Below are positions 6,900-64,000 of a stretch of 64,000 nucleotides of DNA, piece by piece. Each line of letters begins with the position of its first letter. The stretch's first letter is position 1. Source of the stretch: a virus. The notes under the pieces were generated by a model. It had not been told where the DNA came from, did not search any database, and was given only the letters and a program-made list of their open reading frames with translations. Both the position numbers and the translations under genes were made by a program. Where the stretch lies: positions 1 to 64,000 of the IMG/VR virus record IMGVR_UViG_3300017766_005733; one strand, given 5' to 3'.

Positions 6900-6959
6900 A
6901 TCGGCCCCAACCTTGAAAATATGGCGGCGCTTTGCCGCTTTGAAAGGGGCTGGTATCTT

Positions 6960-7658
6960 ATGAAGCGACTGATCGTTGCCCTTGCTCTGTTCCTTGGCTG
7001 TCAGCCGGTGGCCGCCAATCCGCCGCTGGAGCCCGATGCCTCGCTGATGGAGGCGGCGATGGCGCTGGAGGCCGCCGAGGCCCAGCCGCAGCTGAAGACC
7101 ATCATCCTCACCGACAAGCCCACCAAAGTGGCACAGGTGGTCCTCGACGTCGCCATCACCGATGAGGCGGCGCGGGCGTTGGAGAACAGCCTGCAGTCGC
7201 TGCCCGGTGACCTCGACTACGTCCTGCTGGTCATCGACAGCCCCGGAGGCCTGCTGTCGGCGAGCAGGGACATGGCGCGCATCATCGAGAGCCACCCCCA
7301 GCGCCTCGCCTGCATCGTCGATGGCGTTGCGGCCTCAGGGGCCTACTACATCCTGCAGTCGTGCTCGATGCGCATGATGACGAGCCGCAGCAACCTGATG
7401 CTGCATGAGGCCTTCAGCGGCGGTGCGCCTGAGACAGCGAACGAAGCCGCGGCGCTGATGGCCATCAACGCCTCGATGGCCTACCAGCAGTGCCACCGGC
7501 TGAAGATGTCAGTCGGCGACTGCCACGCCCGCTACAGTGGCGGCAGGGAGTGGTGGATGACGCCTGAGCAGGCTCTGGCCGCCGGCGCCATCGACACCAT
7601 CGTCGACACGCCCATGCAGGTGATGCTGGCGCTTGGAGAGGCTCAGCCCCCAAAGTAA
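6960..7658 (+). CDS. ClpP/crotonase-fold serine protease with an N-terminal signal or lipoprotein peptide
   Basis: IDSPGG, VAASGA (Ser), LMLHEA (His) and WMTPEQAL..G.ID motifs; N-terminus MKRLIVALALFLGC. Confidence 0.85.
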   Translation: MKRLIVALALFLGCQPVAANPPLEPDASLMEAAMALEAAEAQPQLKTIILTDKPTKVAQVVLDVAITDEAARALENSLQSLPGDLDYVLLVIDSPGGLLSASRDMARIIESHPQRLACIVDGVAASGAYYILQSCSMRMMTSRSNLMLHEAFSGGAPETANEAAALMAINASMAYQQCHRLKMSVGDCHARYSGGREWWMTPEQALAAGAIDTIVDTPMQVMLALGEAQPPK

Positions 7659-47897: not shown

Positions 47898-48199
47898 TCC
47901 TCAGTGGTGTTGAAGGCCCAGACATGGTTGGTGGCGTACTCGACGATGAACGAAGGCGCTGGCCCGTACCAAGTCTGGCTGTGCTTGACGGCCAGAATCG
48001 CGGCCTCAAAGTCGGAGAACCCCATGCCCTCGGGCAGCGTCGGGGCATAGACAAAGAAGCGCGGAACGGTGCGAGCGAAGCGATCCATGCCAAAGGCGAC
48101 AACGGGCAGGGTCGGCCGGTCTGACTTTGGCAGAAGGACTTCTGCGTGAGTAATAGGAGCCATGCCCATTGGCGGAACCATCCAGTTCATGAACGTCAT
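47894..48199 (-). CDS. Hypothetical protein (MTFMNW...)
   Basis: ATGA coupling with the Hef-like gene stop. Confidence 0.55.
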   Translation of the reverse strand: MTFMNWMVPPMGMAPITHAEVLLPKSDRPTLPVVAFGMDRFARTVPRFFVYAPTLPEGMGFSDFEAAILAVKHSQTWYGPAPSFIVEYATNHVWAFNTTEE

Positions 48200-49605
48200 G
48201 AAGCGACGATAGCCGATGACGATGAAGGTGTCAAGTCCATCTCCCAGCGAACAAGACCGCAGTCCCAGATACGCGCATAGCCGCGAGCCGCCATCTCCTC
48301 GTGCTCCGTTACCTCGTCGCCCACCCCCAAGGCCGCCTTGCGAAACTTCGATCGATGCCAACGATGGCGATCTGATCCCTTTTTGATGTACCAGTATCCC
48401 GGTGGAAGAACCTCAGCCGCGATAAACCCTGAGCGCTCGTAAATGCCGCCACTAGACCAACGACGATCAGAGAAGGTGACGATGCGCGTGGGGCGCAGGA
48501 CGGCGATGGCGCCACTCAACAGCCGCTGAAGGCCACCGGCGACATGAAGTCGTTCCGTCAAAGCGTAGCGAGAGAGTTCCCAGACGCCATCGCCGCGATG
48601 ACGAAAACCAGCGACAGCCACCAGTTCGCCGCTATGCCTCAGCCCCCAACAACGAGTCTCGGCTCCCGCGGCCTGCAGGTGATGAGCGTCGAAGAACTCA
48701 GCCGCTGTCTTGATGTCGACCTCGGCCACCTCGCACTTCCGCGCTCCAACTCGCTGACCCGGCAAACCAGAAAGCGCCTGAAGGTAGGCGCAGCAAATGG
48801 CACGACGCTGAATCCACTCGTCGGAAAACACCGTCACCAGCCTTATGCCGAGGCGCTCACAGGCCTGCAGCTTCTCCAGATGCCGCCTACGAGCCTTCTC
48901 TGGCGTATGGATCTCGCTGTGATAATGAAGACCGCAGTATTCTATGGCCAAAGACAGGGACGGCACCCATATGTCAATCTCAAGCGGAGAAATGACGTGG
49001 CGCACGTTCTCAAAGACCTCCAACCCTGCTTGGCGAAGGAGATCGGCGATCTCCCCCTGAGCGTGGCTCTTCACACACCCACAAGAACGCACCTTCATGT
49101 ACAAGAAATCAAAAGAACGGACATGGAACAGTCTGCCGCAGTGACAGTGCAACTGCAGGCCATCACGTCCCAGCGGGATAGGGGCGTCTGCGTCTAGGTC
49201 ACACCGCATCCCCAGTCGCTGCGCCACGACATGGACGTCACGCCCCCGGTACTTGGTCCGGTCTTCTTCAGGAATGTCCCTCCAACGCCTTTTTGAAGCC
49301 TTGGATACTTCCGCTCGCAGCGTCTCGTCTCGCCATGCCGTTCGGACGGAGGCAGCACGGCGCTCTAAGACCTCTGGGGTAAGAGACTTTCGCATCGTCT
49401 CCCAAGCATCGGGATCCTTTGCGAGGCGGCCGGCTCGTGCATTTTCTTGCCTCTTGTCTGGGGGCAAGGAAAACCGGGCGCGAGTCTGGATGTTCTTGAT
49501 CTGTGAAACCGTGAGCCCAAGGCGTTGGGCGACGGCCTCGCGCGTCATGCCCTCGGCCCGCAACCTCACGACTTCGTCGACCAGATCCTGAGAGAAAGCC
49601 TTCAT
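48196..49605 (-). mobile_element. Hef-like free-standing homing endonuclease (HTH + Vsr/PD-(D/E)XK + GNAT-like C-terminus)
   Basis: N-terminal HTH; SCGC; LEIDIWVP..AIEYCGLHYH..FSDEW; GARKC; SDRRWSSG..Y; RIWDCG. Confidence 0.8.
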
Positions 49606-49650
49606 GCCACACCCCATTACCCCAGAGGCATAGCATAGATTCAACCGCGT

Positions 49651-49692
49651 AAAAAAAGCAAGATGGAGGCCGTTACCAGCCTCCATCTTGCT
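49651..49692 (-). terminator. Intrinsic terminator after the major capsid gene
   Basis: 14-bp stem AGCAAGATGGAGGC/GCCTCCATCTTGCT with a T-run on the minus strand. Confidence 0.85.
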
Positions 49693-49716: not shown

Positions 49717-51126
49717 TCAGCGCAGGTTGTCGATCAGCGCGTTCTTGCGGGGCTGCATGACCGCCAGCGTCGCGAAGCGGAAGTGCGCCTCGGGGATGCT
49801 GAGGTCGGCAACCGCCAGCTTCAGGCGGCTGTACGGCGCCAGTTCCTTGATCTCCATCGTATCGCCCTGAAGCAGGAAGCCGGTGACGAAGCCGGGCTGC
49901 TTGTTGCCGATGTCGATGAAGCTGGTGGTGCCGGTGGCCGCGGCCACGACGCGACCGATGAACTTCGCCGACGCCGCCGTGCCGCCAGCGGCGGAACGGT
50001 AGACGTTGAGGAAGCGGGTCGTGCCCGAGCCCGAGGGCGTGATCACCAGCGTGACGCCGTGACCGGCGGTCGCGATGGTGGCCGACGACGACAGCGAGGC
50101 CGCCGACTCACCGACTTCGTTACCAGCGGTAACGTAGTAGGTGTAGACCTCACCAGCGAGGAACGGCGTCGTGGCGCCCGAGATGGCACCCGGCGTCGCC
50201 GACGTGAGGGTCGGAGCCGACGGGCCGTCGGGACGCGACGGAGACGGACGGGTCTTGCCGCTGAGGAAGCGCGAGGCCTCCACGGCGACCGTCGCGTTCG
50301 ACGTCCACTGCTTGCGGAGGTCCGCGCCCGTCGCGCCCTGCGGCGAGCCGGCGAGGATGATGCGCTCCTTGCCGAAGACGATGCGGTTGTAGACGCTGAG
50401 GACGCGCGGGTCGACGACCAGCTTGTCCGCATTGCCCATGTGCATCGCCGAACGAACCGACGCTTCCTCGATCAGGTCCTGCGAGAGCGCGCCGCCACCG
50501 GGGACAACGCACGACTCATCGGCACCGAACTCGGCGAAGTAGCGGTCCTGCGCCGTCGCCTGATTGTCCGACTGACGGATCTGCACGTCCACGCCGATCA
50601 TGTTCGCCATGACGCCGGGGATCGCGAGCGGGTTGCCGTCGAAGACACCAGCGTTGCTGAAGTCGGCGCGACCACGGAAGAGGTCGAACTCGACGTCGGC
50701 AGCGATGATCTTCGCAGCGTCGGCAGCCGCACGGTCATCCGCAGCCACACCGTCGACCGTCGACACGAGCGTCGAGGCGATGGTCACGCGGCGGTGGTGG
50801 CTGTAGTAGCACATCGGCACGACCACACGCACGAAGTCGCTGGTCTTCTCGGCGCCGAGGTTGCCTTCCAGCTGCGCCGAACCACCGAAGTGGCCGTACG
50901 ACAGCTGACGGTCGAACTGAGCGAGGGTCGACTTGACGGCCTTCGACTTCAGCATCGACTGCAGCTTGATGTGGCTGTCGTCGAAGGTGACGTTCTCAAG
51001 GACCGGCGACAGGTCTTCGACCTGAAGCGCGGCGCCCTGAACGAGGGACGAGGGGGCAGCGTTGTAGGAGCCGGCTTCAAGGGCCTTGACCAGCTTCTCC
51101 AGCTGCTCGATGGAACTCGGGTTCAT
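49717..51126 (-). CDS. Major capsid protein
   Basis: 469 aa; VKALEAG...GAALQVEDL N-terminus like Herelleviridae-type MCPs; strongest codon bias; GGAGG SD; terminator downstream. Confidence 0.9.
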   Translation of the reverse strand: MNPSSIEQLEKLVKALEAGSYNAAPSSLVQGAALQVEDLSPVLENVTFDDSHIKLQSMLKSKAVKSTLAQFDRQLSYGHFGGSAQLEGNLGAEKTSDFVRVVVPMCYYSHHRRVTIASTLVSTVDGVAADDRAAADAAKIIAADVEFDLFRGRADFSNAGVFDGNPLAIPGVMANMIGVDVQIRQSDNQATAQDRYFAEFGADESCVVPGGGALSQDLIEEASVRSAMHMGNADKLVVDPRVLSVYNRIVFGKERIILAGSPQGATGADLRKQWTSNATVAVEASRFLSGKTRPSPSRPDGPSAPTLTSATPGAISGATTPFLAGEVYTYYVTAGNEVGESAASLSSSATIATAGHGVTLVITPSGSGTTRFLNVYRSAAGGTAASAKFIGRVVAAATGTTSFIDIGNKQPGFVTGFLLQGDTMEIKELAPYSRLKLAVADLSIPEAHFRFATLAVMQPRKNALIDNLR

Positions 51127-51182: not shown

Positions 51183-52028
51183 TCACTTCAGCAGATGGGA
51201 CAACTTGCTCGCATCGACGTTGCCGCCGAGGAAGAAGTCGTTGATGAGTTCGCGATCGCTCTTGGTCAGCGACGCATCGCGGACCTTGGAGCGCAGCTTC
51301 GCGGCCATCTCCGACTTCGACAGCTTCGGCGCCACGGCGGCAGCCGCGGGCGTCAGCATGGTTTCGGCCTTGCGCATGGGCTTGGAGACGACGGCCTCAA
51401 AGGCGCCGATCACTCGCTCCAACATCTTGCCCTGCTCCTCAAGGCTCTTCTTCAGGGCGGCGACCTCGGTGGTCTCCGACTTCGCGATGGGCTTCATCTG
51501 CCCACCGTTGCCGTCGGCCTTCATCTCGCCCTTCATCGCCGGCGGCGGAGCCGCGGGAGCCGATGCCTCAGGGGCGCCGGCACCAGCAGCAGGACCACCA
51601 GCGCCCATGCCGCCACCCATCGCCGCAGCGAGGGCAGCCTGAGCCGCTTCCGCGTGCATCTTCAGTTCGTCAAGCGGCAGCTTGGCGTACTCAGACTGCA
51701 GCGCAGCCGGGTCCATGGCGCCACCAGCGTCGGGACCCTCGCCACCCTCGTCACCGGGGGCAGCCGGGTCGTCGGCCGGCGACGCGGAGGCCTCAGCGCC
51801 ATTGGCGCTTTCCTCCGACGGACCACCGTCGTCGTCTTCCGCGGCGGGGGCCGGGGCCGAAGCCTCGCCCGCGTCGTCGGCATCCATCTTCGACTTCTCG
51901 TCATCACCCGCGGCCTTGGCCAGCTTCTCAGCCCGGTCCTTCTCCGACTTCGCGATGTTGACGAGGACATTCTGGACATCGGCCAGAATGGCATCGATGT
52001 CGACGTTCGTGAGATCAGGGGTAGACAT
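51183..52028 (-). CDS. Probable scaffold protein
   Basis: Acidic low-complexity/coiled-coil protein just upstream of the MCP; many x-K-S-E motifs; AAGGAGG SD before the ATG at 52028. Confidence 0.75.
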   Translation of the reverse strand: MSTPDLTNVDIDAILADVQNVLVNIAKSEKDRAEKLAKAAGDDEKSKMDADDAGEASAPAPAAEDDDGGPSEESANGAEASASPADDPAAPGDEGGEGPDAGGAMDPAALQSEYAKLPLDELKMHAEAAQAALAAAMGGGMGAGGPAAGAGAPEASAPAAPPPAMKGEMKADGNGGQMKPIAKSETTEVAALKKSLEEQGKMLERVIGAFEAVVSKPMRKAETMLTPAAAAVAPKLSKSEMAAKLRSKVRDASLTKSDRELINDFFLGGNVDASKLSHLLK

Positions 52029-52067
52029 GGTGTAGTCCTCCTTGTTGAGTTTTGAGGAATACAACCA

Positions 52068-52526: not shown

Positions 52527-52623
52527 GTTAGACTCCTGTGAAGTTGGCTTCCGTCAAGATAACGGAAGCGAAGCATCAGATTGCGAGTTTCTCTGTGACC
52601 CATCAAAATGCTACATACAGGGT

Positions 52624-52980
52624 ATGCTTGAGTGCCGTCGCTGCCGCCAATACCTACCCGAAGACTGCTTCCACAACGACTCGTCACGGCCTACAGGAAA
52701 GGCTATGGTATGTCGCACATGTCGCAGCACTAGAGATCGCAGCGCCGAAATACGGCGTCAGGCAGCCAAAAGGCACCCGGTAGCCTGTCGAGTCTGCAGC
52801 CAACATCGCCAGCTGGTTGACGATGGCGTGTGTCGAAAATGCCTCCGGCACCAAGGGCTTCAATGGTGCCCAAGGTGCCGGGAGGTGAAGACTCTGTTTC
52901 TTGACTTCTATGGCGACGCATCGATCTGCGTCGCCTGTCGGCTATCGCGTAAGGTCGCGAACGGCGAAGCCCGTGAGTAG
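52624..52980 (+). CDS. Multi-CxxC zinc-finger protein
   Basis: Six CxxC motifs (CRRC, CRTC, CRVC, CRKC, CPRC, CVAC). Confidence 0.65.
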   Translation: MLECRRCRQYLPEDCFHNDSSRPTGKAMVCRTCRSTRDRSAEIRRQAAKRHPVACRVCSQHRQLVDDGVCRKCLRHQGLQWCPRCREVKTLFLDFYGDASICVACRLSRKVANGEARE

Positions 52981-53175
52981 ATCGGATTTGGGCAGGTGTG
53001 GCGCCAGCCGCCGCTTGGCTTCGGCCACGAGTTCAAACAGGGGGCGATTGGCGTCCATGATGACCTCATGGTAGGGTGTGCCGATCAGTCGCACGCGCAC
53101 GCCCACCGTGCGATGACCGATGGCGATCTTGCCGTCTTCAGCCAGTGGCACCACGATATATTTGCCGTCAACCAT
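52942..53175 (-). CDS. Small hypothetical protein
   Basis: AAGGA SD; overlaps the stop of the GGDEF gene. Confidence 0.5.
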   Translation of the reverse strand: MVDGKYIVVPLAEDGKIAIGHRTVGVRVRLIGTPYHEVIMDANRPLFELVAEAKRRLAPHLPKSDLLTGFAVRDLTR

Positions 53176-54415
53176 TTTCCTTACCTCCCGGCGCCACGGT
53201 AGCGGGCTGCGGCGCGGGAGTCAAGGAGGAAGACATGGCTGGCTGCTTGAGCAGGGAGTGGAAGCGCAGGGGCTTGGTGGGCTGCACCATGCGCGCATCC
53301 ATGCCCGGATTCTGGGCAAGAGCCTCGGCGATTTCTGCCCTCTTGCCATCCTTCGCCATCAGCAGTGCATCGTCGGCGACCTTGGGGTTTTCGCCAAGGC
53401 CAACGCTGAAGCCCACCTTGTGGGTGCCGCCGACGTCTGGCAGCTTCGACAGGTTGTCGTGCAGCTGGCGCAAGACCATGTGCGCCTGCTCCGGCGTCTT
53501 CGTCCAGAAGTGGAACTCGTCGCCGCCAAACCGATGCGCCTTGGCGTTGTCGTGCCCCACCGTCTGATCGATGGCCGAACGCAGGGACTGCCCCAGAGAC
53601 TGGATGGCCTTGTCGCCTTCAGGGTGGCCATGGGCGTCGTTGATAGCCTTCATGCCGTCGCCGTCCAGCATCGCGTGGACGCCGGTCTGGGCTTCGGGGC
53701 TGGCCATGAAGTCGCGGTACGCTCGCTTGTTACCCAGCGACGGAATCATCTCGTCGTGGTAGAGTTCCTTGCGCAGGGCCTCGTAGTGGTCTTTGTGCAG
53801 GTGCCCGGCGTCAACCAGCGCCCTCAACTGCGAGAAGGTATCGTTCAGCGACGACTTCCGGAGAGGCGCAAAGGCTTCAAAAGCCTTCATCGCCGACTTC
53901 TTGAAGTCACCCAGATCCGGGGGCGTGACATAAGTGATCTTGGCTACGCCCTTCTTGGCGTTGTCCAGCATCACCTGCACATCGTCGCGCGAGACCTCTT
54001 TGCCGTCGAGAGTCAACCGGCCACTCTTCGCCTCCAGCACCCGCGGGACGCTGTAGCCCTCACGATGATAATGGAAGACGCCGTCGCGGGTCGGGGCTTG
54101 CGTGACTTCGCCGCCATCAGCGGCGTCTGAGTCACCGAAGACCTCGTTCTCCCAATCGTCGACCTGTGCCTGCTCGTTGGCCGGCTTCTTCTTGTCGACG
54201 AGGTAGTAGTGGCTGTTCATCAGCGACTCAATGCGGCTCTGGTGTCGCGCCAGAGGCTGCTCATCGAGGCCGTCAAGGATGCCTTCGTGGTCTTCCACGA
54301 CGTGGATAACGCCGTCGTGAAGGATGTACTTGCCGACAAGGCGCGGATGCACGCTCATCCGCTTGAAATCGGGATGAAGAGCGTAGACGAGATAGGTATC
54401 AAAAGTCGGCATCAT
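53168..54415 (-). CDS. GGDEF-domain (diguanylate cyclase-like) protein
   Basis: D...LGNKR, LDGDGMKAINDAHGHPEGD, RFGGDEF, SVG and ADDALLMAK motifs. Confidence 0.9.
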   Translation of the reverse strand: MMPTFDTYLVYALHPDFKRMSVHPRLVGKYILHDGVIHVVEDHEGILDGLDEQPLARHQSRIESLMNSHYYLVDKKKPANEQAQVDDWENEVFGDSDAADGGEVTQAPTRDGVFHYHREGYSVPRVLEAKSGRLTLDGKEVSRDDVQVMLDNAKKGVAKITYVTPPDLGDFKKSAMKAFEAFAPLRKSSLNDTFSQLRALVDAGHLHKDHYEALRKELYHDEMIPSLGNKRAYRDFMASPEAQTGVHAMLDGDGMKAINDAHGHPEGDKAIQSLGQSLRSAIDQTVGHDNAKAHRFGGDEFHFWTKTPEQAHMVLRQLHDNLSKLPDVGGTHKVGFSVGLGENPKVADDALLMAKDGKRAEIAEALAQNPGMDARMVQPTKPLRFHSLLKQPAMSSSLTPAPQPATVAPGGKENG

Positions 54416-54418
54416 GGC

Positions 54419-57400
54419 TCAGACCTTATCCTTCGGACGCAAGATGTCAAGAGAGGTCTGGGGCGCAACACCGAGCGACTGCAAAGCACGCAGAAGTTCG
54501 GCCTTGGAAAGAGTCGCCAGCCCCTCGCCGGCAGACTTCTCAAGGGTGCTCTTGCTGCACTTCCAGCGCTTGAGGGCCGCCCCCTTCGGAGTCAGCTTGC
54601 CGTCCTTCGATGTGGGTCCCTTGACACCGCTCATCCGCGCACAAAAACTCTTGCGCCTCTTGGCGGCTTTGGAGCCGGGCTCGACCTTGCCCGTCACAGG
54701 CCTCTTGAGGTTGCTGCCCTCTTCGCGATTGACCTTCTCGCGGTAGGAATCGCTCAGACCCCCGCTGCGACTGTGACGATTCTTGTTGTAGCCGTGGAAA
54801 GGCTTGTCTGCCTTGTCGAGGGCGTCGTCGAGATCCTTGGAGACTTCAGTCTCAGCGATCTTTTCTCCAGTCTTTTCGTCGTAGATGCACAGGTGGCTGC
54901 CTTCTTCGTGATGGCAGTGCTCGACGATGTAGGCCCCAATGTGGACATGATCTGTTCCACACTCAGAGCACTCCTCATCGTCGTGCGCGTCTTCGTTGTC
55001 AGTCTTCTTCATCTTCCGAGTGGGGCCTGAGGTGGAAGCCGACTTCATCCCCGACCAATCGCTTCGCTGCCAGTCCTCGGGTTCATCCGAGTGCAGTTCC
55101 TGTCCCGCGGGCGCAAAGTCCTTGCCTTCAAACAGTCCGCGATCAGACCACGGCGCCGGCGTATCCGTCGTTGCGCCGGGTTTCGTCCAAGCGTCGCGCA
55201 GCGCATAGAAGTCACGCATGACGCCATCGACGGCTCGATCGCCCAGCCCCATCCCCTCCATCTCCGCTCGCAGTTTTGGGCCATTCAGATTCCGAAGCCA
55301 TTCGACGGCATCGGGATGGACCGGGGATGACTTCGGGTCCATCATCGCGCGGCCGGCAACCCTGCCCTTGCTTTGAGCCGCGGGACGCGCCTTTTCAAAC
55401 TCGTACACCTTCAGGTAATGGGGCTTGCGGAGTTCCCGCGGCTGCAGCCCCGACCCCGGCTCTTGATGAAGCTGAGCCTCCAGCGACTGCGTTCCTTCTT
55501 GCGCTGTGTTGCGGAAGGTGTGGCCGTGGTCGATCAGCTTGAGGCTCAGCTTACCGTCGTCGGCGCGCGAGAACAGGTAGTTGTTGCCGTGGCGATCGTC
55601 GTTGCCAAGGATGTAGTTCATGGCCGCCAACTTGTGCAGTTCGCCGGCATCGCCGAGGTGCATCAGCGTCTTCAGGTGTGCTGCACTGCCGGAGTTGTGA
55701 TGCTCCGGGTTCTTGACCATCTCCTGCATGCTCATTTCCCAGCCGCCGGGATGGTTGGCCATCGCCGTCAGCGGGACGTACTCGCCGAGACCAAAGACGT
55801 CGCGCGCCAGATTGTGGTACGCAGTTTCGCGAGCCCCCATGTGCGGATACGACCACTCGTGGCCATGCTTCACGAGCACCAACCGCTTGCCGTCGGGATG
55901 CGGAATCCACATCTGCGTTGGCGACGTCAGCGATTCTGTGGCGTGAACAGGCTTGGCCTTCAGGTTCCGGCTCAGATCCACGCCGTCAATCAGCGCCTTC
56001 TGCTCTGGCGTGTTGTTGATGCGATCGCTGCCATCGGCAGCCGTGATCTTGACGGCGGCGATGCGCTTTGGGTTTTTCTCGACCAGATCCGCTTCCTGAG
56101 CCAATCCCAGCGAATGCCGCGACGAGTCAGCGGGGCCTTCACCCCTCGTCGGCGCGGCTTCAGTAGGGTTTCCGTTGGCCTTCTTCAGCTGAGCCGCGGC
56201 GTTGCGAACCTCGACCGACAGCTTCTCGGCCTTGAGGATCGGGTCCTCGTTCTCTGAGCCGTGCATGAGCAGCGGCAGCAGCTGCGAGTAGTAGCGGAAC
56301 GAGGCCTCTTCTTCGCCGTGGTGATTGATCCAGTGACGAACAAGGGCGGCGGCAAGACGCGGATCGATGAGCGGACCCGACCTTTCGGACTTCTTGAAGC
56401 CAAAGCGCAGATTGGCCTGCGGCGCCGGCGATTCGGGCAGCGGCGTCGAGCGGGCTGGAACCGTCTGTTGCGATTCCTTGGGGTCCTGCAGGAGGCGCTG
56501 AACTTCGTCAAACAGAGGACGGTGGCTGGCCGCCTGATTGTGAGCGACGTTCGCTCGCTTGTGCTCCATCAAGCGCTCGTGCGGAGCGATCGAAAGCCAG
56601 TGCCCCCAGAAAGCCGGGAAAACCGCCTGTTCCGGGTTGTCCTTGAAGTAGGATCCAAACTCCGGATGCTGAAGCATCAGCTTTACCGACGGATGATTGC
56701 GGTAATACCAGCGATCCATCGCCGACAGAAGTTCGCTATTCTTCGGGTTCCAAAGAATGTCATCGCGAACGTGGTGGATCGAGTTCTTGTCTTTGTCCTT
56801 GTCAAGACCAAAGAGATGGCGGCTGAAGTGAGTGTCGGGGACGAAGGAGTTGCCGGCCCCCAGCATCGCGTAGGCGAAGCGCGCGGTCTTGGGCGCCAGC
56901 CCCGGAATGTGCAGACCCTGAAAAGCACCCGGATCGGGCTTGCCCTTATCGAGCGCTCGCTTGCGGGAAGCCTCCCACAACTCCGCCTTGCCCTTGTTGC
57001 CCATCAACTCAGCCACCGCCGAACGACCGTCAACGCCGTGGCGAGCCACGAGATCCTTCATGTGCTGGTGAGCATCTGCGTAGCGCGCCATGTTGGCGAA
57101 CTTGTTGTGCGGCAGCATGAAGGAAGTGCGCTCGCCGGCGAGGCGTCCCGTCTGCGTGGAATCTCGCTGATTCGTCACGAGGTTGCCGATGTGCTGCGTG
57201 AAGTAGTCGCGCGACGACTGCGGCCAAGCCTGCGGCTGGTCGCGCGACATCCAGTCCTGCTTGACCTCCGGAGACCCGAAGCGTGGATCGCGGATGTCCA
57301 TGCCCTTGTCCTTGAAGGTGTCCAGCAGGTAGCTGTACATCATTTCATGAACGGGCACGGGTGTGTTGGGGCTCAACTGCGAGAAGGCCACCGACGTCGC

Positions 57401-59128
57401 CAGCACCGCCTCTGGCAGCCGCCCCTGCTTCAGGGCCTGATTCAGCTTGATCCAGTTGCCAACAGCGTAGTCGTGCTGGCGGCGAACCTCAGGTGAGTTC
57501 CAAACCTGACGGAACTTCTCGCCTGAATCACTATCGGCATCCGGGTTGTAGAGGCTGAAGTGGCCGTTCTTGGTCTTCAACTGGCCTGTGTGCTCGTTGA
57601 ACGTCATCTCCGGACCCGAAAGGCCCGTGGGCTTGACGCCTTCGCCGCGGATCGTAAACGCAGGAGCCTCAGGAGCCTTGGGCGCTTTAGCGGCGGGGGC
57701 CTTCGGGGCGGGCGCGGCCTTCTCTGGAGCAGAAGCCTTCTCTGGAGCAGCAGCCTTCGGCTCCGCGGCCTTGCGGGCCTTTGCCAGCGGCTCAGCCTTC
57801 CGCAGCTTCGCGCGGATGTCGGTGGCGAGGTCGGTGAAGTGATCGAGGTAGTTGTCGCTGACCTCCGGAAGCTGAGACTTCAGAAAGTCGCGCATGCTGC
57901 CCTTTGACTCATGGTATTCCTGAGCCAACTTCACCAGCTTCTTCGCCAGTTCCTCGCGCTGCAGAGCCGCGCCGCCCATGAGGCTAGAGGGCGAGCCGGT
58001 GGCCATGCCCGCGTCCATTGCCTTCTTCATGCCCGTCTCCTGTTCACTCTTGCGCGCCTTCGACTCAGTGATGTCGATGGCGTCCATGGTCTTGAGTCCG
58101 ACCTTCTTGGCCGCAAAATGACGGTGATTGCCGTCGACGATGTCCCAGCCCCCGGCTCCGGAGCGGCGAACGACGGCCGGCGGCAGCTTGTCGTGCTGCG
58201 CCATCTGAACGTACATCGCATAGCGATCGTAGTTCTTGATGGGGTTGAGGTTCTGGGCGCTGTCGACGTCGATCGTGATCTTCTTGCCGCCGCCAAAGTG
58301 CTGCTTCAGGGCCTTCTCGTACGCGCCATCCCAGCGCTTGCGATCGGGAGTGCCGGCACGGGGGATAACGACGCCGTCCTCGGACTCCCACTGCTTTGGG
58401 GGCTTGGGGGGCTTCGGCAACACCGGCTTCTTGGCAGCCGGCTTCGGCTCCTTGGAGGCCTTCAGTGCCTTCCAGAGGGTCTGCTGCTCAGCCGCATCCT
58501 GCTCGATCTCGCCCGAAGAGCCGAGGCGGCCGTAGAGCGGGTGCTCTTTCTTCACCAACTCGGCGATCGGCTTCTTGGGCTTCTTCTCGTAGCCCTCGGG
58601 GGCGTTGGGGTCGACCACGAGGTCGCTGTCGCAGGTCTTGTTGCAGGGCTTGATGGTCAGCGCCACGCGACGCGCGATCGTGCGCTTGAGTTTGTTGCCA
58701 TCGCGCTCCAGCGTGGAGCCGTCGATCGAGAACCGGACAAGGATCTGTTCCTTGTTCTTCACCGCGTCACGGACCTGAGCAGCCAGCCCCTGAGCCGAGA
58801 GGTGACCGGCGCCGTCATAGAGCCGCACCATGCCGTAGATGAAGGGCACCTTGACCTTTTTCCAGAACATCTTCTGGCGGTCGTCGTCGGCGTCCGACTC
58901 CTGCATGATCTTCTTGGCGAAAACGATCTTGCCGACGATGTCCTGCGACGTAGCGCCGGTGGACTCGTCGTTGCGGTGCTCGTAGTTGGCGAGCCCACGC
59001 CCCTCGATCATCTCACTGATGTCACAGCCCTCGATGTCGAGGACTTCACCACTGGAATCCCATACCTGACTGGCAAAAATGCCATCAAGAATCATTCCAT
59101 TGGAACCATCAATGATGTCGTTGTTCAT
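54419..59128 (-). CDS. Prohead protease polyprotein: protease + ParB-like + MCP-like peptide + HhH-GPD-like + kinase + C-terminal module
   Basis: DSSGEVL..G, NYEH, FSIDGS and VALTIKPCN (HK97/herpes-type protease); IVDGNHR; IPGLAPKTA..VPDTH; GNDDRHGNN..LIDHG; RRKSFCARM. Confidence 0.85.
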   Translation of the reverse strand: MNNDIIDGSNGMILDGIFASQVWDSSGEVLDIEGCDISEMIEGRGLANYEHRNDESTGATSQDIVGKIVFAKKIMQESDADDDRQKMFWKKVKVPFIYGMVRLYDGAGHLSAQGLAAQVRDAVKNKEQILVRFSIDGSTLERDGNKLKRTIARRVALTIKPCNKTCDSDLVVDPNAPEGYEKKPKKPIAELVKKEHPLYGRLGSSGEIEQDAAEQQTLWKALKASKEPKPAAKKPVLPKPPKPPKQWESEDGVVIPRAGTPDRKRWDGAYEKALKQHFGGGKKITIDVDSAQNLNPIKNYDRYAMYVQMAQHDKLPPAVVRRSGAGGWDIVDGNHRHFAAKKVGLKTMDAIDITESKARKSEQETGMKKAMDAGMATGSPSSLMGGAALQREELAKKLVKLAQEYHESKGSMRDFLKSQLPEVSDNYLDHFTDLATDIRAKLRKAEPLAKARKAAEPKAAAPEKASAPEKAAPAPKAPAAKAPKAPEAPAFTIRGEGVKPTGLSGPEMTFNEHTGQLKTKNGHFSLYNPDADSDSGEKFRQVWNSPEVRRQHDYAVGNWIKLNQALKQGRLPEAVLATSVAFSQLSPNTPVPVHEMMYSYLLDTFKDKGMDIRDPRFGSPEVKQDWMSRDQPQAWPQSSRDYFTQHIGNLVTNQRDSTQTGRLAGERTSFMLPHNKFANMARYADAHQHMKDLVARHGVDGRSAVAELMGNKGKAELWEASRKRALDKGKPDPGAFQGLHIPGLAPKTARFAYAMLGAGNSFVPDTHFSRHLFGLDKDKDKNSIHHVRDDILWNPKNSELLSAMDRWYYRNHPSVKLMLQHPEFGSYFKDNPEQAVFPAFWGHWLSIAPHERLMEHKRANVAHNQAASHRPLFDEVQRLLQDPKESQQTVPARSTPLPESPAPQANLRFGFKKSERSGPLIDPRLAAALVRHWINHHGEEEASFRYYSQLLPLLMHGSENEDPILKAEKLSVEVRNAAAQLKKANGNPTEAAPTRGEGPADSSRHSLGLAQEADLVEKNPKRIAAVKITAADGSDRINNTPEQKALIDGVDLSRNLKAKPVHATESLTSPTQMWIPHPDGKRLVLVKHGHEWSYPHMGARETAYHNLARDVFGLGEYVPLTAMANHPGGWEMSMQEMVKNPEHHNSGSAAHLKTLMHLGDAGELHKLAAMNYILGNDDRHGNNYLFSRADDGKLSLKLIDHGHTFRNTAQEGTQSLEAQLHQEPGSGLQPRELRKPHYLKVYEFEKARPAAQSKGRVAGRAMMDPKSSPVHPDAVEWLRNLNGPKLRAEMEGMGLGDRAVDGVMRDFYALRDAWTKPGATTDTPAPWSDRGLFEGKDFAPAGQELHSDEPEDWQRSDWSGMKSASTSGPTRKMKKTDNEDAHDDEECSECGTDHVHIGAYIVEHCHHEEGSHLCIYDEKTGEKIAETEVSKDLDDALDKADKPFHGYNKNRHSRSGGLSDSYREKVNREEGSNLKRPVTGKVEPGSKAAKRRKSFCARMSGVKGPTSKDGKLTPKGAALKRWKCSKSTLEKSAGEGLATLSKAELLRALQSLGVAPQTSLDILRPKDKV

Positions 59129-59171
59129 GGACTACGTCCTCGGAAAGCAGTTGACGGGCGAAAGATTCCTC

Positions 59172-59201
59172 TTGACGCCCCCCTTGCGATGGCTGTAGCA
59201 T
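59172..59201 (+). promoter_or_regulatory. Sigma70-type promoter, leaderless or near-leaderless geometry
   Basis: TTGACG-18nt-TAGCAT, then 8 nt to the ATG at 59210. Confidence 0.6.
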
Positions 59202-59209
59202 GCGAGGTC

Positions 59210-59425
59210 ATGGCAACCCAACTCACAAAACCCGTCGTCCGCGAAACCAACGTCATCATCAACGGGCGACCGCTGGTGGTGACCATCAGCCCCAACGGTA
59301 CCATCTCGTTCCGAGAAAAGGGTAGCCGAGGCCCGGTCTCGGAGTTCTCAACGACCTTGGCGGCCTGCTACCACATGGCCGTCAAGCAGGAGGTCTTGGC
59401 GACTAAGCGCGCCAAGGCCAGCTAA
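59210..59425 (+). CDS. Small hypothetical protein (MATQLTKPV...)
   Basis: 71 codons filling the gap between two minus-strand head genes, with its own promoter. Confidence 0.65.
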   Translation: MATQLTKPVVRETNVIINGRPLVVTISPNGTISFREKGSRGPVSEFSTTLAACYHMAVKQEVLATKRAKAS

Positions 59426-60163
59426 TCAGCCGCGACCTCGCTGGGTTGCGTATTCGTTGTGACCCCGGCCAACGAAGCGAACCATCCCAGCGGCGTCAAA
59501 GCCATAGCCGGGCATCAGTGTGGCGAGACTGCAGCGGCAATGGGGATGTAGCCCGTTGACCTTGGGATTGTTCTCGCCTCGCTTGTGGTAGCCGGTCCCG
59601 ACCTCGGACATCTTCCAGACACGCGGCGTGACGCCATCAGGCATCAGGTGCAGTCGCGTGCATTCCTTGCACCGAAGTCCATCGCGGACCACGACGAAGA
59701 AGACCATCGCGTCATCGATGCCCGCCTGCAGGTTCAGCATCGTGATGCCCTCCAGAGTGCCCGTGGCGCGGCTGCGCTGGGTCTCCGTGTCGGCAATACG
59801 CATCACGTCGTTCGTGACCTTGGACCAGACGTCCACCAGCTTGCCGGCAAGGGCACCGGAACTCGGCTGCCCCTCCTGCTCCGCCGACAAAACATGGTGA
59901 AGGACTTCGGCCTTTGCGCGCTCCCTCGCTGAATCGAGGTAGGAGCCGGCGATGTTGACGACACCCAAGAGCGTCTTGGGGCTCATCTTGGCGCCGTCAT
60001 CTGCGGCCGCGGCGGTAGCAATGCCCGCCAGCGTCAAGTCCGGGCGATCGGACGTGACCGTCAGCGTCTTGTCGACCAGCCGCACCCCCAGAAACCGCGC
60101 CTTGATGCGTTCAAAAAGGCTGTCGATGGCTGCGTGGATGCGGCTGATGGTCTGCTTCTTCAC
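59426..60163 (-). CDS. MuF/SPP1 gp7-like minor head morphogenesis protein
   Basis: RIADTE, D..RCKEC and LHPHCRC motifs; directly downstream of the portal. Confidence 0.8.
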   Translation of the reverse strand: MKKQTISRIHAAIDSLFERIKARFLGVRLVDKTLTVTSDRPDLTLAGIATAAAADDGAKMSPKTLLGVVNIAGSYLDSARERAKAEVLHHVLSAEQEGQPSSGALAGKLVDVWSKVTNDVMRIADTETQRSRATGTLEGITMLNLQAGIDDAMVFFVVVRDGLRCKECTRLHLMPDGVTPRVWKMSEVGTGYHKRGENNPKVNGLHPHCRCSLATLMPGYGFDAAGMVRFVGRGHNEYATQRGRG

Positions 60164-60165
60164 GG

Positions 60166-62367
60166 CTACTCCCCGATGTCTTCATCGGCTGATAGCGCGC
60201 GGCCGATCTCGGCCAGAGCGGCGCGAGAGTCATCCTCCCACGTCTTCTGGAAGCGATCGACGATGGCTCGATGCTTGGCCAGCAGCTTGCGCTTGGACGG
60301 CGACAGCGTGGCTTCCGACTTTAGCATCTCCGAAGCCTGATCGAGGCCGCGCGTCAGGTCACCGCCAGCCTGCTCAGCCGCCTGCTGAGACTGCTGCTGC
60401 GAGGACTCGGCGGTCGCCGCCTGCTGGGAGGCCTCTGCCTGCTGAGCCTCACCCTTGCCCGGCTGCGGACCCCCACCGCCGCCACCACCTCCACCGCCAC
60501 CTCCGCCATCCTGCGGCGGCTGCCCACCCTGCTGCTGGGCCGCCTGCTCCTGCATCTGCTGCTGTTGCTGCATCTGCTGAACCTGCATCTGCAGCTGCTG
60601 CCACTGGAACCAGAAGGGGTCGCGAACGTAAGCCAGCTTGGGGTCCTTGGCCGCACCCTTTTGACCGAAGAAGTGCTCCTTGATCTGGCCCACCGTCAGG
60701 TACTTGTCGACGACCGCCTGCCACTGGGCGTTGAAGGGGAAGTCGCCGCCAAGTTCCTCGGGGATCTCTTCCTTCTCGACCTTGTTCAGGACCTCGTTGT
60801 AGGTCATGTGCAGCGGCGCGTCCTGCTGCAGTCGGATCGATTCCTTCTCGGCCGTCTCAGCATCCAAGCCCATCAACTGGATTTCGCACTTGCCAACGAG
60901 GTTGGGCGCGATCAGGGGCAGAAGCTGGGCGTTGATGAAGTCCTGCCACGCCAAGAGCAGTGGGCGCAAGCCGACGTCGCGGTGAGCAATCATCAGGTAC
61001 TCCTGATTGCTCTCCGACAGCGCCTGATTGTTGGTACCGCGGCTGAGGTGGGCGTAGCCGGGTAGTTCTTCCGGCGACATCTGGAAGGCCGACAAGATGA
61101 TGCGGGCCGTCATGTCGCTCAGGTACTGGAACTCCATGTCGCGCTGACTGGCATCCGTCGAAACCCACTCAATGTTTTCCTCGACGCCAACGCCCAGCAC
61201 CGGCACGCGCCAGCTGTTCTGCACGCTGTTGATGGCGGCGTTGAACTGCTGGCGGATGTCGTTGATCATCGAGTCATCGACGTCATCGGACTTGATGATG
61301 AGGATGCCGCGGCTGGCGCGGCCGCTCTGGAAGTACAGCTTGTTGTGGGTCGTGATGTTGATATGCGTCGTGACAGCGGCAATGACCGTGTCGAGGGGCG
61401 ACAACGGATAGCCGCGGAACTCAACGTCGGCGACGGGGTAGAAGTTGTAGACGAGGCATTCCTCGGCAGTGAACGACTGTCGCGGCTGCCCTTCCAGAAC
61501 CTGAATCCAAGCGATGTCTTCCGGCGTCACCGTGTTGTTGGGTTCGTGCTCCAGCTTCTTGCGCTTGATGCGCTCAAGCAGCCTCGCCGCCGTCTCACGC
61601 AACTCCACCGCCATCTGGTTCATTGGCACGGAACGGTAGATGGTGCCGGCGTCGATGGGACGGAAGGAGTGGAACTCGCGACGTCCCGTGTGGACGTTGT
61701 AGACCCAAATGATTTCGGTGGCCACGCGCCCCAGCACCACCGCATTCTTCGTCGAGACCGTCAGGTACTGGCTGAAGGTCATCTGCTCTTGATCCGACCA
61801 GCCCTTCGTCTGACCGCAAGATCGCAGCAGTTCGGACGCTCGCTTGATCTCTTCGTCAAGAGCCCTCTGCTCTTCGGGCTCCAGTGACTCCTCGACTCCC
61901 GGAATCGGGACAATCCCAAAGCCCACGCCGTGGCGATCACGACGAGGACGACCAAAGGAGCCGATGTGGTTGCCGCGGGTGTTGACGATCGAGGCAACGA
62001 GGCTGTCCTGAATGGCAATCCGCTTCAGGATGCTGTCGGGGATGCCACGCAGCTTCTGCTGCCACAGCCCCTGATTGCTGCCGACCTGACTCGGGTCCAC
62101 CTCAAAGGCCAGACGCTCGATGGACGTCTCGCCGCCGTTGAGGAGGTTCATCAGGCTCTTGGCAAGACGCTGATGGCCAACGACGGGCCCGGCGTCGGGG
62201 ACCGTCGGGAGAGAGTCCAACTTCTCGACCGTCAGCACAGGCTGCGGCATCGATGGGTCGGTGAAACGCACCTGCCGCCGACTCTTGCTGAGCCCCTCGG
62301 TCTTTGGCGTCGCGGACTTGATGAGGGCCTGAAAGTACGCGGAAGTGGGATTACTGGGAGTTGTCAC
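60166..62367 (-). CDS. Portal protein
   Basis: IDAGTI, YPLSPL, N..YF..G...GIL, RDMEFQY, AFQMSPEEL and GLRPLL motifs; Q/G-rich C-terminal tail. Confidence 0.9.
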   Translation of the reverse strand: MTTPSNPTSAYFQALIKSATPKTEGLSKSRRQVRFTDPSMPQPVLTVEKLDSLPTVPDAGPVVGHQRLAKSLMNLLNGGETSIERLAFEVDPSQVGSNQGLWQQKLRGIPDSILKRIAIQDSLVASIVNTRGNHIGSFGRPRRDRHGVGFGIVPIPGVEESLEPEEQRALDEEIKRASELLRSCGQTKGWSDQEQMTFSQYLTVSTKNAVVLGRVATEIIWVYNVHTGRREFHSFRPIDAGTIYRSVPMNQMAVELRETAARLLERIKRKKLEHEPNNTVTPEDIAWIQVLEGQPRQSFTAEECLVYNFYPVADVEFRGYPLSPLDTVIAAVTTHINITTHNKLYFQSGRASRGILIIKSDDVDDSMINDIRQQFNAAINSVQNSWRVPVLGVGVEENIEWVSTDASQRDMEFQYLSDMTARIILSAFQMSPEELPGYAHLSRGTNNQALSESNQEYLMIAHRDVGLRPLLLAWQDFINAQLLPLIAPNLVGKCEIQLMGLDAETAEKESIRLQQDAPLHMTYNEVLNKVEKEEIPEELGGDFPFNAQWQAVVDKYLTVGQIKEHFFGQKGAAKDPKLAYVRDPFWFQWQQLQMQVQQMQQQQQMQEQAAQQQGGQPPQDGGGGGGGGGGGGGPQPGKGEAQQAEASQQAATAESSQQQSQQAAEQAGGDLTRGLDQASEMLKSEATLSPSKRKLLAKHRAIVDRFQKTWEDDSRAALAEIGRALSADEDIGE

Positions 62368-63388: not shown

Positions 63389-64000
63389 TCAGCCCAATGA
63401 CATGAAAAAGCGGCCTTTTCTCACGGGCTTAGTGGGATCAAGACTCAGGCTGACGCCAACGTGATCTGCAATCTGCTGGCGATGCACATCGGTGACGACC
63501 GGCGATCGGCCTCCCGGAGTCTTGTTGGCCTCTGGCGCCAGAACGGTGGTCTTTCCCTTCCGGAAACGGTTCATCAGACCATAGCGTAGGGCATCGCATG
63601 CGTCGTCGTCGGCCTCGTCGGGGACGTTCGTCGGATTGCCGGCGGCGTCAACGGTCCAGTGATACTTGGAGAGGCAGCCGAACACCCAGTCGACCATCGA
63701 GTCTTCTGACAAAAAGTACAACAATGGGTCGCCGATAAGGGGTCGGATCATCCAACGAATGATTTCGATGCCCATGAGCACCGAGCCCGGCCCCTTGCTC
63801 CACTTCCTCATGTTCCAGCCGGCGTCCTTGAACTCCTTGACGCCCTGCGGGTTCTCGGGGTCGGCGTAGACCTCGGAGTTGTAGCGCCCCAACTTGGCGT
63901 TACAGAGAGCGATCTGCTGGTTGGTCAGGATCTCGGACTGCGCCACGGCGTCGATAACGAAAGCGCGACGACCGTCGACGGCGACAGTGATGGCGACGAA
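63389..64000 (-). CDS. terL: Terminase large subunit, C-terminal nuclease domain (partial)
   Basis: YADP, K....GI, Y.W...P...DDDACDALRY RNase H-like motifs; frame appears open to the window edge; upstream of the portal. Confidence 0.85.
   Translation of the reverse strand, partial: FVAITVAVDGRRAFVIDAVAQSEILTNQQIALCNAKLGRYNSEVYADPENPQGVKEFKDAGWNMRKWSKGPGSVLMGIEIIRWMIRPLIGDPLLYFLSEDSMVDWVFGCLSKYHWTVDAAGNPTNVPDEADDDACDALRYGLMNRFRKGKTTVLAPEANKTPGGRSPVVTDVHRQQIADHVGVSLSLDPTKPVRKGRFFMSLG

Follow-up and report, generated by a model that had tools for sequence, protein, structure and literature searches.

Prohead proteases of the assemblin fold become activated inside proheads, and in the assemblin-scaffold precursor of herpesviruses (pUL26 type), in HK97 gp4/gp5 and in lambda C/Nu3 an N-terminal protease of this fold is combined with a part that belongs to the capsid interior. 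The internal proteins IPI-III and Alt of T4 carry a common capsid-targeting sequence and are processed by gp21, according to the sections of PMC3012670 that deal with them, and gp245 of SPN3US auto-removes its C-terminal propeptide and processes the ejection proteins (relevant passages of PMC10052503). Assemblin-like peptidases are also listed among the domains of polyvalent proteins, where they are, in the wording of the passages concerned, “always” C-terminal (Iyer et al. 2017, PMC5512222). The protein considered here, P0001, comprises 1569 amino acids (aa) and is encoded on the minus strand at positions 54419..59128 of a 64,000-nt stretch of viral DNA, hereafter the window (positions 1 to 64,000 of IMG/VR record IMGVR_UViG_3300017766_005733); a protease-like domain leads it, a copy of the N-terminal arm of the major capsid protein (MCP) follows, and several enzyme-like modules are fused behind. 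The best explanation overall, to which a probability of roughly 0.6 is assigned, is that this is the head-maturation protease gene of a Mx1-like myovirus, enlarged so that it now encodes a modular, polyvalent head protein.

The viral contig, a record of 131,625 b with a CheckV completeness of about 80%, is a relative of Myxococcus phage Mx1. The gene is a single ATG-started frame with zero internal stops and occurs once in the record; at least six folded modules are predicted in its product by AlphaFold2 models made from family alignments for residues 1-480 (mean pLDDT, the predicted local distance difference test score, 81.8) and 481-1569 (mean pLDDT 75.9), with folds compared by VIA against 48,161 PDB representatives. 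From the N-terminus the order is protease, ParB/sulfiredoxin-like insert, capsid N-arm copy, helices, HhH-GPD-like domain, kinase, Cys/His cluster and DUF6321. The features are as follows, together with the arm of the MCP itself; the arm was located with a position-specific scoring matrix (PSSM).

54419..59128, minus strand: protease-led polyprotein P0001 (open frame; homologue of Mx1 WNM70322.1)
58544..59128, minus strand: protease of predicted assemblin/T4 gp21 fold, residues 1-195 (VIA, Foldseek, conserved H51/S134)
58397..58543, minus strand: low-confidence tail of the protease, residues 196-244 (alignment, pLDDT 39-58)
58049..58396, minus strand: insert of predicted ParB/sulfiredoxin fold, residues 245-360 (Foldseek, VIA; IVDGNHR at residues 330-336)
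57947..58030, minus strand: M-K-K|A cut-like site and capsid N-arm copy KAMDAGMATGSPSSLMGGAALQREEL, residues 367-394 (PSSM scan)
57764..57946, minus strand: conserved helical segment, residues 395-455 (model, alignment)
56444..57658, minus strand: HhH-GPD glycosylase-like domain, residues 491-895 (VIA; pLDDT mostly >90)
56177..56362, minus strand: helical hairpin in the linker between glycosylase-like domain and kinase, residues 923-984 (model helices, pLDDT 57-87)
55145..56053, minus strand: predicted PI4K/CtkA/HipA/Fam20-like atypical kinase, residues 1026-1328 (VIA, Foldseek)
54809..54952, minus strand: Cys/His cluster, CSEC..H.H..HCHH..H.C, residues 1393-1440 (sequence; model)
54563..54775, minus strand: DUF6321 (PF19846), basic, residues 1452-1522 (Pfam, phrog_10346/4689/727)
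51010..51087, minus strand: the original of the capsid N-arm, MCP residues 14-39, KALEAGSYNAAPSSLVQGAALQVEDL (PSSM, 70.8 bits)

An initial annotation, made from the sequence alone, had proposed just this succession of a protease, a ParB/sulfiredoxin-like domain, an MCP-like peptide, an HhH-GPD-like domain, a kinase, a Cys/His cluster and a DUF6321-like module within one frame. Every one of these assignments is borne out by the comparisons described below, and the motifs lie where they had been placed (IVDGNHR at 58121-58141; DRHGNN, residues 1178-1183, at 55580-55597).

Residues 1-195 are predicted to have the assemblin fold. The best VIA match of the model is T4 gp21 (5jbl_A, Z 9.7, root mean square deviation (rmsd) 3.0, 127 residues aligned), followed by the varicella-zoster virus protease (1vzv_A, Z 9.2), and Foldseek adds the pseudorabies protease (4v07_B, E 2.5e-3). 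Residues 7-186 recovered SPO1-like Bacillus phages by tblastn at 31% identity (E 6e-6 to 9e-6), one of the hits being annotated as a prohead protease; no protease family was matched by P0001 in Pfam and NCBIfam scans. H51 and S134, the latter being the serine of FSIDG, are invariant in all 66 aligned family members and are candidates for the catalytic His and Ser of this fold; H109 is found in 65 of them. The tail that follows holds a K-x-E-HP-x-Y-x-x-LGG block kept throughout the family and an LWK|A site at 218-221. In the window, in Mx1 and in the relatives examined, the polyprotein gene lies between the portal and MCP genes.

A link to the capsid is the short peptide behind the ParB/sulfiredoxin-like insert: over 26 aa, polyprotein residues 369-394 match MCP residues 14-39. 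When a PSSM built from 68 polyprotein instances, including P0001's own, was run over all six frames of the 131.6-kb genome, the MCP N-terminus scored 70.8 bits, the polyprotein 65.1 and everything else at most 8, so that the polyprotein and the MCP N-terminus are the only places where this motif is found; in Mx1 the N-arm copy is likewise paired with its own MCP. L12, K14, E17, G19, P25, L28, G31 and E37 are invariant among 24 MCPs, which nearly always keep A15 too; in the MCP of the window the arm is preceded by L12-V-K14|A15. Both copies of the arm (PSSM >25 bits) were found in 26 of 80 relatives' loci, the remaining 54, many of them truncated by contig ends, lacking one or both. Among 26 non-identical pairs, window and Mx1 included, the two copies agree at 16.9 of 26 positions within genomes and at 15.4 between genomes, the within-genome value being reached by none of 10,000 shuffles in a test that takes no account of shared ancestry. 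The helices behind the arm (386-407, 412-419 and 425-455) are modelled at pLDDT 76-92, and the block from residue 367 to about 455 is present in nearly all homologues.

The arm motif and the helices are present also in minimal, cargo-free proteases of 325-344 aa (L071, L075); the arm motif belongs to the protease's own C-terminal extension, behind which cargo has been added. As the segment is shared and co-varies with the MCP and is present in cargo-free proteases, N-arm copy and helices are the better candidate for a targeting or tethering element, and they are likelier to serve as the address than the protease domain is. Of the initial proposal that the protease itself carries a capsid-targeted cargo polyprotein, the second half thus fits, because modules are swapped, GGDEF is fused in 23 relatives and the cut-like motif is enriched in head proteins; the protease as carrier is less likely than the N-arm copy. 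A complex prediction for protease residues 1-200 with MCP residues 1-70 gave a score of 0.00, that is, no answer, and weighs neither way. Translation from an internal start at M367 (58028-58045, with GGAG 6 nt upstream) is a minor possibility; the methionine is conserved in P0001-P0006 alone, P0007 and the more distant members lacking it.

A word-index search with P0001 returned 83 proteins at E <= 1e-3, of which 68 (P0002-P0069) share the protease block, in all cases at the N-terminus; the remaining 15 have DUF6321 alone in common with it. The full architecture is present in the near relatives P0002 (87-92% identity), P0003 (80%) and P0004 (73-77%), to which the Cys/His and DUF6321 tail is confined. 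Relatives keep protease, N-arm copy and helices and vary in the downstream part, the blocks kept by nearly all members being residues 9-224, 367 to about 455, about 490 to 990, and 1016-1320; other members carry GGDEF instead of the kinase, DUF6321, a Phage_L5_gp82 insert, or inteins. The Phage_L5_gp82 domain (PF25735, E 1e-27) occupies residues 502-608 of P0006, in the linker past the helical segment. A search for shorter members brought in another 27 proteins (442-861 aa), many consisting of protease and arm with either kinase or GGDEF, and more than 100 family members are fused altogether. From 91 relatives found in IMG/VR, 80 loci were kept; they hold 66 complete protease open reading frames (ORFs), 59 of them unique, which cover the range of 248 to 1631 aa continuously. 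Among 41 locus ORFs scanned, nine contain the kinase, five GGDEF, two DUF6321 and one an intein.

Exchange at the module borders can be followed for the GGDEF module, which in the window is encoded separately by a 415-aa gene beginning 3 nt past the polyprotein stop and retaining an intact RFGGDEF motif. Residues ~10-400 of its product align to the C-terminal parts of the protease polyproteins of 23 relatives, which argues for fusion and fission at the borders of modules. Inteins interrupt the glycosylase-like domain of P0002, P0004, P0034, L021 and P0093, right before the serine of HEMMY|SYLL; in the window this site lies before S600 (about 57329-57331), and the window copy is without an intein and 92% identical to P0002. 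Forms split so as to start with the N-arm copy (P0144, P0198, P0222) were considered and set aside as not established: P0144 has no relative in IMG/VR, and the single relative found for P0198 is fused (1437 aa). P0154 and P0175 begin within an intein and are fragments.

Four of the modules recall proteins of known structure or family. Residues 245-360 combine a predicted ParB/sulfiredoxin fold (ParB-CDP 6sdk_B by Foldseek, E 9.9e-6; sulfiredoxin 6ky4 by VIA, Z 8.2, 77 aligned) with a DGxHR-type pocket motif; Pfam ParB_N reaches 20.0 bits, under its cut-off of 26.3, and residues 225-366 are aligned through only in P0002-P0006 and P0064.

The glycosylase-like domain is the most conserved cargo of the protease-polyprotein family. 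Its residues 527-869 align with the 8-oxoG glycosylase Tm1821 (3n0u_A; Z 13.8, rmsd 3.1, 207 residues aligned to a target of length 209), a value to be read with the caution that helical models can reach Z about 13 in VIA through chance arrangement. All ten non-kinase rows among the 50 VIA matches listed are enzymes of the HhH-GPD superfamily, whose two-lobed helical fold the model shows, further matches being QNG1, Mag1, OGG1, MagIII and EndoIII (Z 8-9.7); PF00730 gave no match to the domain at E <= 10. Within GLAPK747TARF...GAGNSFVPD765TH, K747 is kept in 63 and D765 in 64 of 66 members, and these two, judged by eye against EndoIII rather than by a residue-level alignment, are candidates for the HhH-GPD catalytic residues, which are an Asp behind the helix-hairpin-helix and its Gly/Pro-rich loop and, in bifunctional enzymes, also a Lys. 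With this domain as query, phmmer found 196 proteins among 1.84 billion representatives; among the 150 listed most are long and have the domain in an internal position, and in at least six of those listed the best stretch begins at query residue 109, corresponding to the point before S600 where inteins insert. The assignment of this part to DUF7178 (ESM Atlas, score 0.94-0.95) was unconfirmed, PF23802 being without a match in the record. The helical hairpin that connects the domain to the kinase is associated with the cut-like sites FKK|S (911), ILK|A (964) and LKK|A (981).

For residues 1026-1328 the model predicts a kinase fold, which here goes together with a DRHxxN loop and a putative metal-binding Asp in the IDHG motif at 1199-1202. 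PI4KIIalpha is the first VIA match (4pla_A, Z 17.2, 242 aligned), followed by CtkA (3akj_A, 14.3), Fam20 (13.3) and HipT (12.5), and Foldseek points to VPS34 and PI4KIIalpha. D1178 is present in 53 and D1200 in 50 of 66 members, most of the others being without a kinase domain. PF00454 (PI3_PI4_kinase) scores 24.8 bits in P0001, below the cut-off of 27.1, and exceeds it in the relatives P0064 (27.5), P0065 (28.6), L054 (31.3), L034 (31.0), L058 (30.1) and L048 (28.7); the match spans only about 45 residues round the catalytic loop. When PDB sequences were searched, phmmer with P0001 found only Spo0J (E 6.6e-4) and the family profile only HipA_C/HipT (E about 0.5). Similar PI3K/PI4K-type kinase modules are borne in BFVD by phage proteins named as portal or head-morphogenesis fusions.

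The Cys/His cluster, which is read directly from the sequence, is modelled as four beta-strands and one helix (pLDDT 69-86). DUF6321 is matched over profile positions 2-72 of 72 with 47.1 bits, above the cut-off of 28.5. The domain is known from stand-alone small genes of marine T7-like phages, where it falls into the interval between scaffold and capsid genes in two of three examined; it also occurs inside large protease-free proteins (P0070-P0084), together with DUF5661 or NUDIX, and at L084 4001-4231 and L085 3501-3698.

The site at the head of the arm is itself a family feature. Of 130 non-identical instances, 121 have a hydrophobic residue at P3, 120 a K at P1 and 121 an A or T at P1'; [LIMV]-x-K-[AT] stands at the front of the arm motif in about 93% of them and in 24 of 24 MCPs. 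The related pattern [LIFM]-x-K-[AS], with expected counts taken from shuffles and the frames of the MCP and of a scaffold-like protein encoded nearby counted separately, is found 12 times in the polyprotein (4.0 expected), five times in the portal (0.8), seven times in the scaffold-like protein (1.1) and twice in the MCP (0.7); in the rest of the genome it occurs 46 times as compared with 41.3 expected. Three of the five portal sites (L-x-K-S) lie within the first 70 residues. In the polyprotein the sites are at 218, 367, 415, 442, 448, 911, 964, 981, 1244, 1437, 1529 and 1540, most of them between modules. There are signs of a Glu rule as well, since KSE, the commonest xxE tripeptide in the 28 ORFs homologous to the scaffold-like protein, and KAE stand out there, and K-x-E precedes HPxY in the protease tail; a Glu-based rule in the style of T4 and SPN3US was set aside, as Glu is not conserved at the arm motif of the polyproteins. 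A Lys-based register of the putative cut is therefore favoured over a Glu-based one, the two being not distinguishable here.

The gene stands in a head module read on the minus strand. It is preceded by the terminase part, a 323-aa protein of unknown function, the portal and a 245-aa protein, and is followed by the GGDEF protein, a 152-aa unknown, a 293-aa acidic protein, the MCP and an HNH endonuclease.

63389-63946, minus strand: large terminase, C-terminal part (gene order)
60166..62367, minus strand: portal protein, 733 aa (PF04860, phrog_12)
59426-60163, minus strand: 245-aa protein resembling the portal C-terminal region (phrog_2662)
53168..54415, minus strand: GGDEF-type nucleotide cyclase-like protein, 415 aa (PF00990, E 3.3e-11)
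51183..52064, minus strand: scaffold-like acidic, Ala/Pro-rich protein, 293 aa (composition, position)
49717..51126, minus strand: MCP, 469 aa (phrog_752, E 3.7e-48)
48196-49686, minus strand: HNH/REase-type homing endonuclease (phrog_3339, E 7e-77)

No family match was obtained for the scaffold-like protein in Pfam, PHROG or NCBIfam scans, and its putative role as a scaffold is suggested by its composition and by its place just upstream of the MCP gene. In the C-terminal third of the portal, 13 consecutive glycines come after a Gln-rich stretch. The 245-aa protein next to it, without a Pfam match, carries CKEC...HPHCRC, which looks like the MuF/SPP1 gp7 head-morphogenesis motif. The endonuclease gene lies directly downstream of the MCP gene, as segD lies beside gene 23 in T4. 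Two stretches of the module are without a long minus-strand ORF, 52527-53167 (641 nt) and 59129-59425 (297 nt); Mx1 has a comparable gap after the cyclase gene and four small genes on the opposite strand before the polyprotein gene.

Taken together, it is very probable that P0001 is a real, protease-led modular head protein. According to the explanation preferred here, the chain would co-assemble into the prohead core, where N-arm copy and helical segment would contact the partner of the capsid N-arm, be it scaffold or shell; the protease would be activated in the prohead and then cut at [LIMF]-x-K-[AS/T] sites, which are also seen at the N-termini of the MCP and the portal and in the scaffold-like protein. 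The enzymes freed inside the head would exit with the DNA and act on the DNA and signalling of the next host. The chain is probably cut into parts, and delivery of the modules to the host is a more tentative proposition, somewhat nearer to doubtful than to probable.

Several observations weigh against this explanation. The Pfam S77/S78 profiles gave no match in the whole record even at E <= 10, and hhalign of the family alignment with T4 gp21 yielded a 34-column local match upstream of the Ser that is not significant (E 0.059, probability 0.9%). The agreement of arm copies within genomes, apart from shared ancestry, would be given just as well by gene conversion. Seven of the 12 cut-like sites fall into low-pLDDT blocks, which make up 27% of all blocks (p 0.024), but so do 18 of 31 K[AS] dipeptides overall; the placement in linkers has been rejected as specific evidence because all K[AS] dipeptides behave alike, reflecting linker composition. 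There is no cut-like site from the kinase end (~1328) to the start of the Cys/His cluster (1393). Since the GGDEF module is encoded apart from the polyprotein here and by two genes in Mx1, it need not be fused in order to function. With a chain of 170 kDa for each copy of the protease, the head would have to accommodate a large mass of protein, and the genome also contains a ClpP-like gene of the head-maturation-protease type (6921-7658).

That last gene could be the true head-maturation protease, leaving the protease of the polyprotein to process only its own chain. It encodes a ClpP-fold protein of 245 aa on the plus strand and matches PF00574 above the cut-off (50.9 bits) as well as phrog_94 (E 5.6e-18) and phrog_2976, “head maturation protease”. 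However, it lies among unknown genes about 47 kb from the head module, and by tblastn it was found in only two phage records, both of Burkholderia phage KS9, and not in Mx1; the protease of the polyprotein, instead, sits between portal and MCP in Mx1 and the 80 fetched loci, and the MCP, portal and scaffold-like proteins all bear the cut-like motif of the polyprotein, so that a leading part for the ClpP-like protein is very improbable. Somewhat less so, though still improbable, is a reading in which the C-terminal 1100 residues are an internal core protein, uncleaved or degraded in bulk, whose enzyme-like folds would be vestiges, or would bind DNA as structural elements that organise the packaged genome. 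DNA binding by the HhH-GPD fold would suit this, as would the basic DUF6321 with its place between scaffold and capsid genes in two of three T7-like marine phages and the resemblance of the helical segments to scaffold coiled coils; yet the catalytic-type residues K747, D765 and those of the kinase DRHxxN/IDHG motifs are strongly conserved, inteins home into the glycosylase-like motif, as is typical of functionally constrained sites, and a separate scaffold-like protein is present.

It is also possible, if unlikely, that the polyprotein serves expression only: it would be cut in the cytoplasm of the producing cell, like the polyproteins of RNA viruses, and its enzymes would act late there, being neither packaged nor delivered. 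In favour of this, the GGDEF module functions without being fused both in the window and in Mx1, and modules are gained and lost freely. The place of the gene within the portal-scaffold-capsid block in every relative examined speaks against it, as do the co-variation of the N-arm copy with the capsid gene, the activation of assemblin-fold proteases inside proheads, and the similar kinase modules that other phages have fused to proteins of the portal or of head morphogenesis. An assembly or sequencing artefact joining separate genes, which the initial annotation had named as a way to refute its reading, can practically be dismissed, because architecture and head-module context are conserved: the near relatives P0002, P0003 and P0004, from other sources, share the full architecture, the core of it is present in cultured Mx1, and the fusion is seen in more than 100 family members. 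The protease comes first in at least 68 homologues, and ORF lengths in relatives range from 248 to 1631 aa.

The modular head protein thus preferred invites a bolder interpretation, which is speculative and would sooner be doubted than believed. Capsid cut site and N-arm copy might form a portable address-and-release tag, by which any appended enzyme would be carried into the prohead, freed and injected, making these proteins protease-led injected effector polyproteins. The cargo of such a tag would comprise the glycosylase-like, PI4K/CtkA-type kinase, diguanylate-cyclase-like, ParB and DUF6321 modules, and the DNA as well as the second-messenger and phospho-signalling of the host might be reprogrammed in the first minutes of infection. 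If this is true, large phages would follow a simple loading rule of protease, capsid-arm copy and cargo; proteins could be packaged into capsids by means of a natural, swappable tag; and a set of probably injected enzymes with targets in Myxococcota-type hosts (glycosylase-like, atypical kinase, GGDEF cyclase) would be defined, of which the glycosylase-like domain is found almost only in these polyproteins. As Mx1 can be cultivated on a laboratory host that is harmless, each step is directly testable.

The closest relative in a cultured phage is WNM70322.1 of Mx1 (OR576727.2, 169.6 kb), annotated as “putative prohead protease” and 1239 aa in length, an orthologue with 34% identity over residues 9-1188 of P0001 (E 1e-108). 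As the BLAST coverage ends at residue 1188, the Mx1 protein appears to be without the Cys/His and DUF6321 modules. Nothing on the architecture of this protein is contained in the Mx1 genome announcement (PMC10720576), the available text of a 2026 myxophage preprint does not use the terms protease, kinase or polyprotein, and in the literature searched on Mx1 and myxophages, prohead-protease polyproteins, DUF6321 and capsid targeting sequences no description of such an architecture was found. The genes follow each other in Mx1 as they do here, that is, terminase, hypothetical, portal, hypothetical, polyprotein, cyclase, two hypotheticals and MCP, except that two genes encode the cyclase there, as against a single 415-aa GGDEF gene in the window.

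The comparison with the herpesvirus, HK97 and lambda type concerns the front of the chain. There, as is proposed here, the part behind the protease ties to the capsid interior and is cut at sites common to other head proteins; the extension of those proteases is scaffold only, whereas enzymes are appended here. The HK97 gp5 sequence ...TFNK SLGSDADSAGSLIQP (F-N-K S-L-G..AGSLIQP), which is cut at K103/S104, resembles L-V-K A-L-E..PSSLVQG of the window.

As with the T4 internal proteins and the SPN3US ejection proteins, a short address would place diverse enzymes of the family in the prohead core, and a protease of assemblin fold would release them. In those two systems, as far as the passages cited at the outset describe them, every cargo protein has a gene and an address of its own, and cutting occurs after Glu (A-X-E in SPN3US). 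The P0001 family carries its cargo in one chain with the protease and downstream of it, has Lys at the conserved site and uses as shared peptide a duplicate of the capsid arm. Fusions of MuF domains to toxins or effectors, as they are treated in sections of PMC5512222, provide a further parallel in that a head-assembly domain carries variable C-terminal effectors; the carrier here is a maturation protease with a capsid-arm copy and not MuF, the 245-aa protein resembling the portal C-terminus being encoded upstream.

Nearest of all are the polyvalent proteins (Iyer et al. 2017, PMC5512222; the statements here refer to the passages on domains and architectures). The premise of the initial annotation, that prohead proteases usually measure about 200-300 aa or are fused only to scaffold or MCP, was too narrow, as assemblin-like peptidases are listed there. 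The P0001 family shares with polyvalent proteins the many unrelated enzyme domains in variable architectures (2-15 unrelated domains being their defining range, into which the family falls), the ParB-type and kinase modules and the processing peptidase, and both are predicted to be packaged into the head and delivered with the DNA. It differs in the nature of some modules, the word “glycosylase” being absent from those passages and the kinase described in them being a truncated Ser/Thr kinase rather than one of the PI4K/CtkA/HipA kind; nor do they describe a copy of the capsid N-arm. The assemblin-like peptidase is N-terminal in every member of the family examined here. The polyvalent protein is thus the closest published concept and is not itself new; what the family adds to it is a protease that leads the chain and, behind it, a copy of the arm of the capsid protein.

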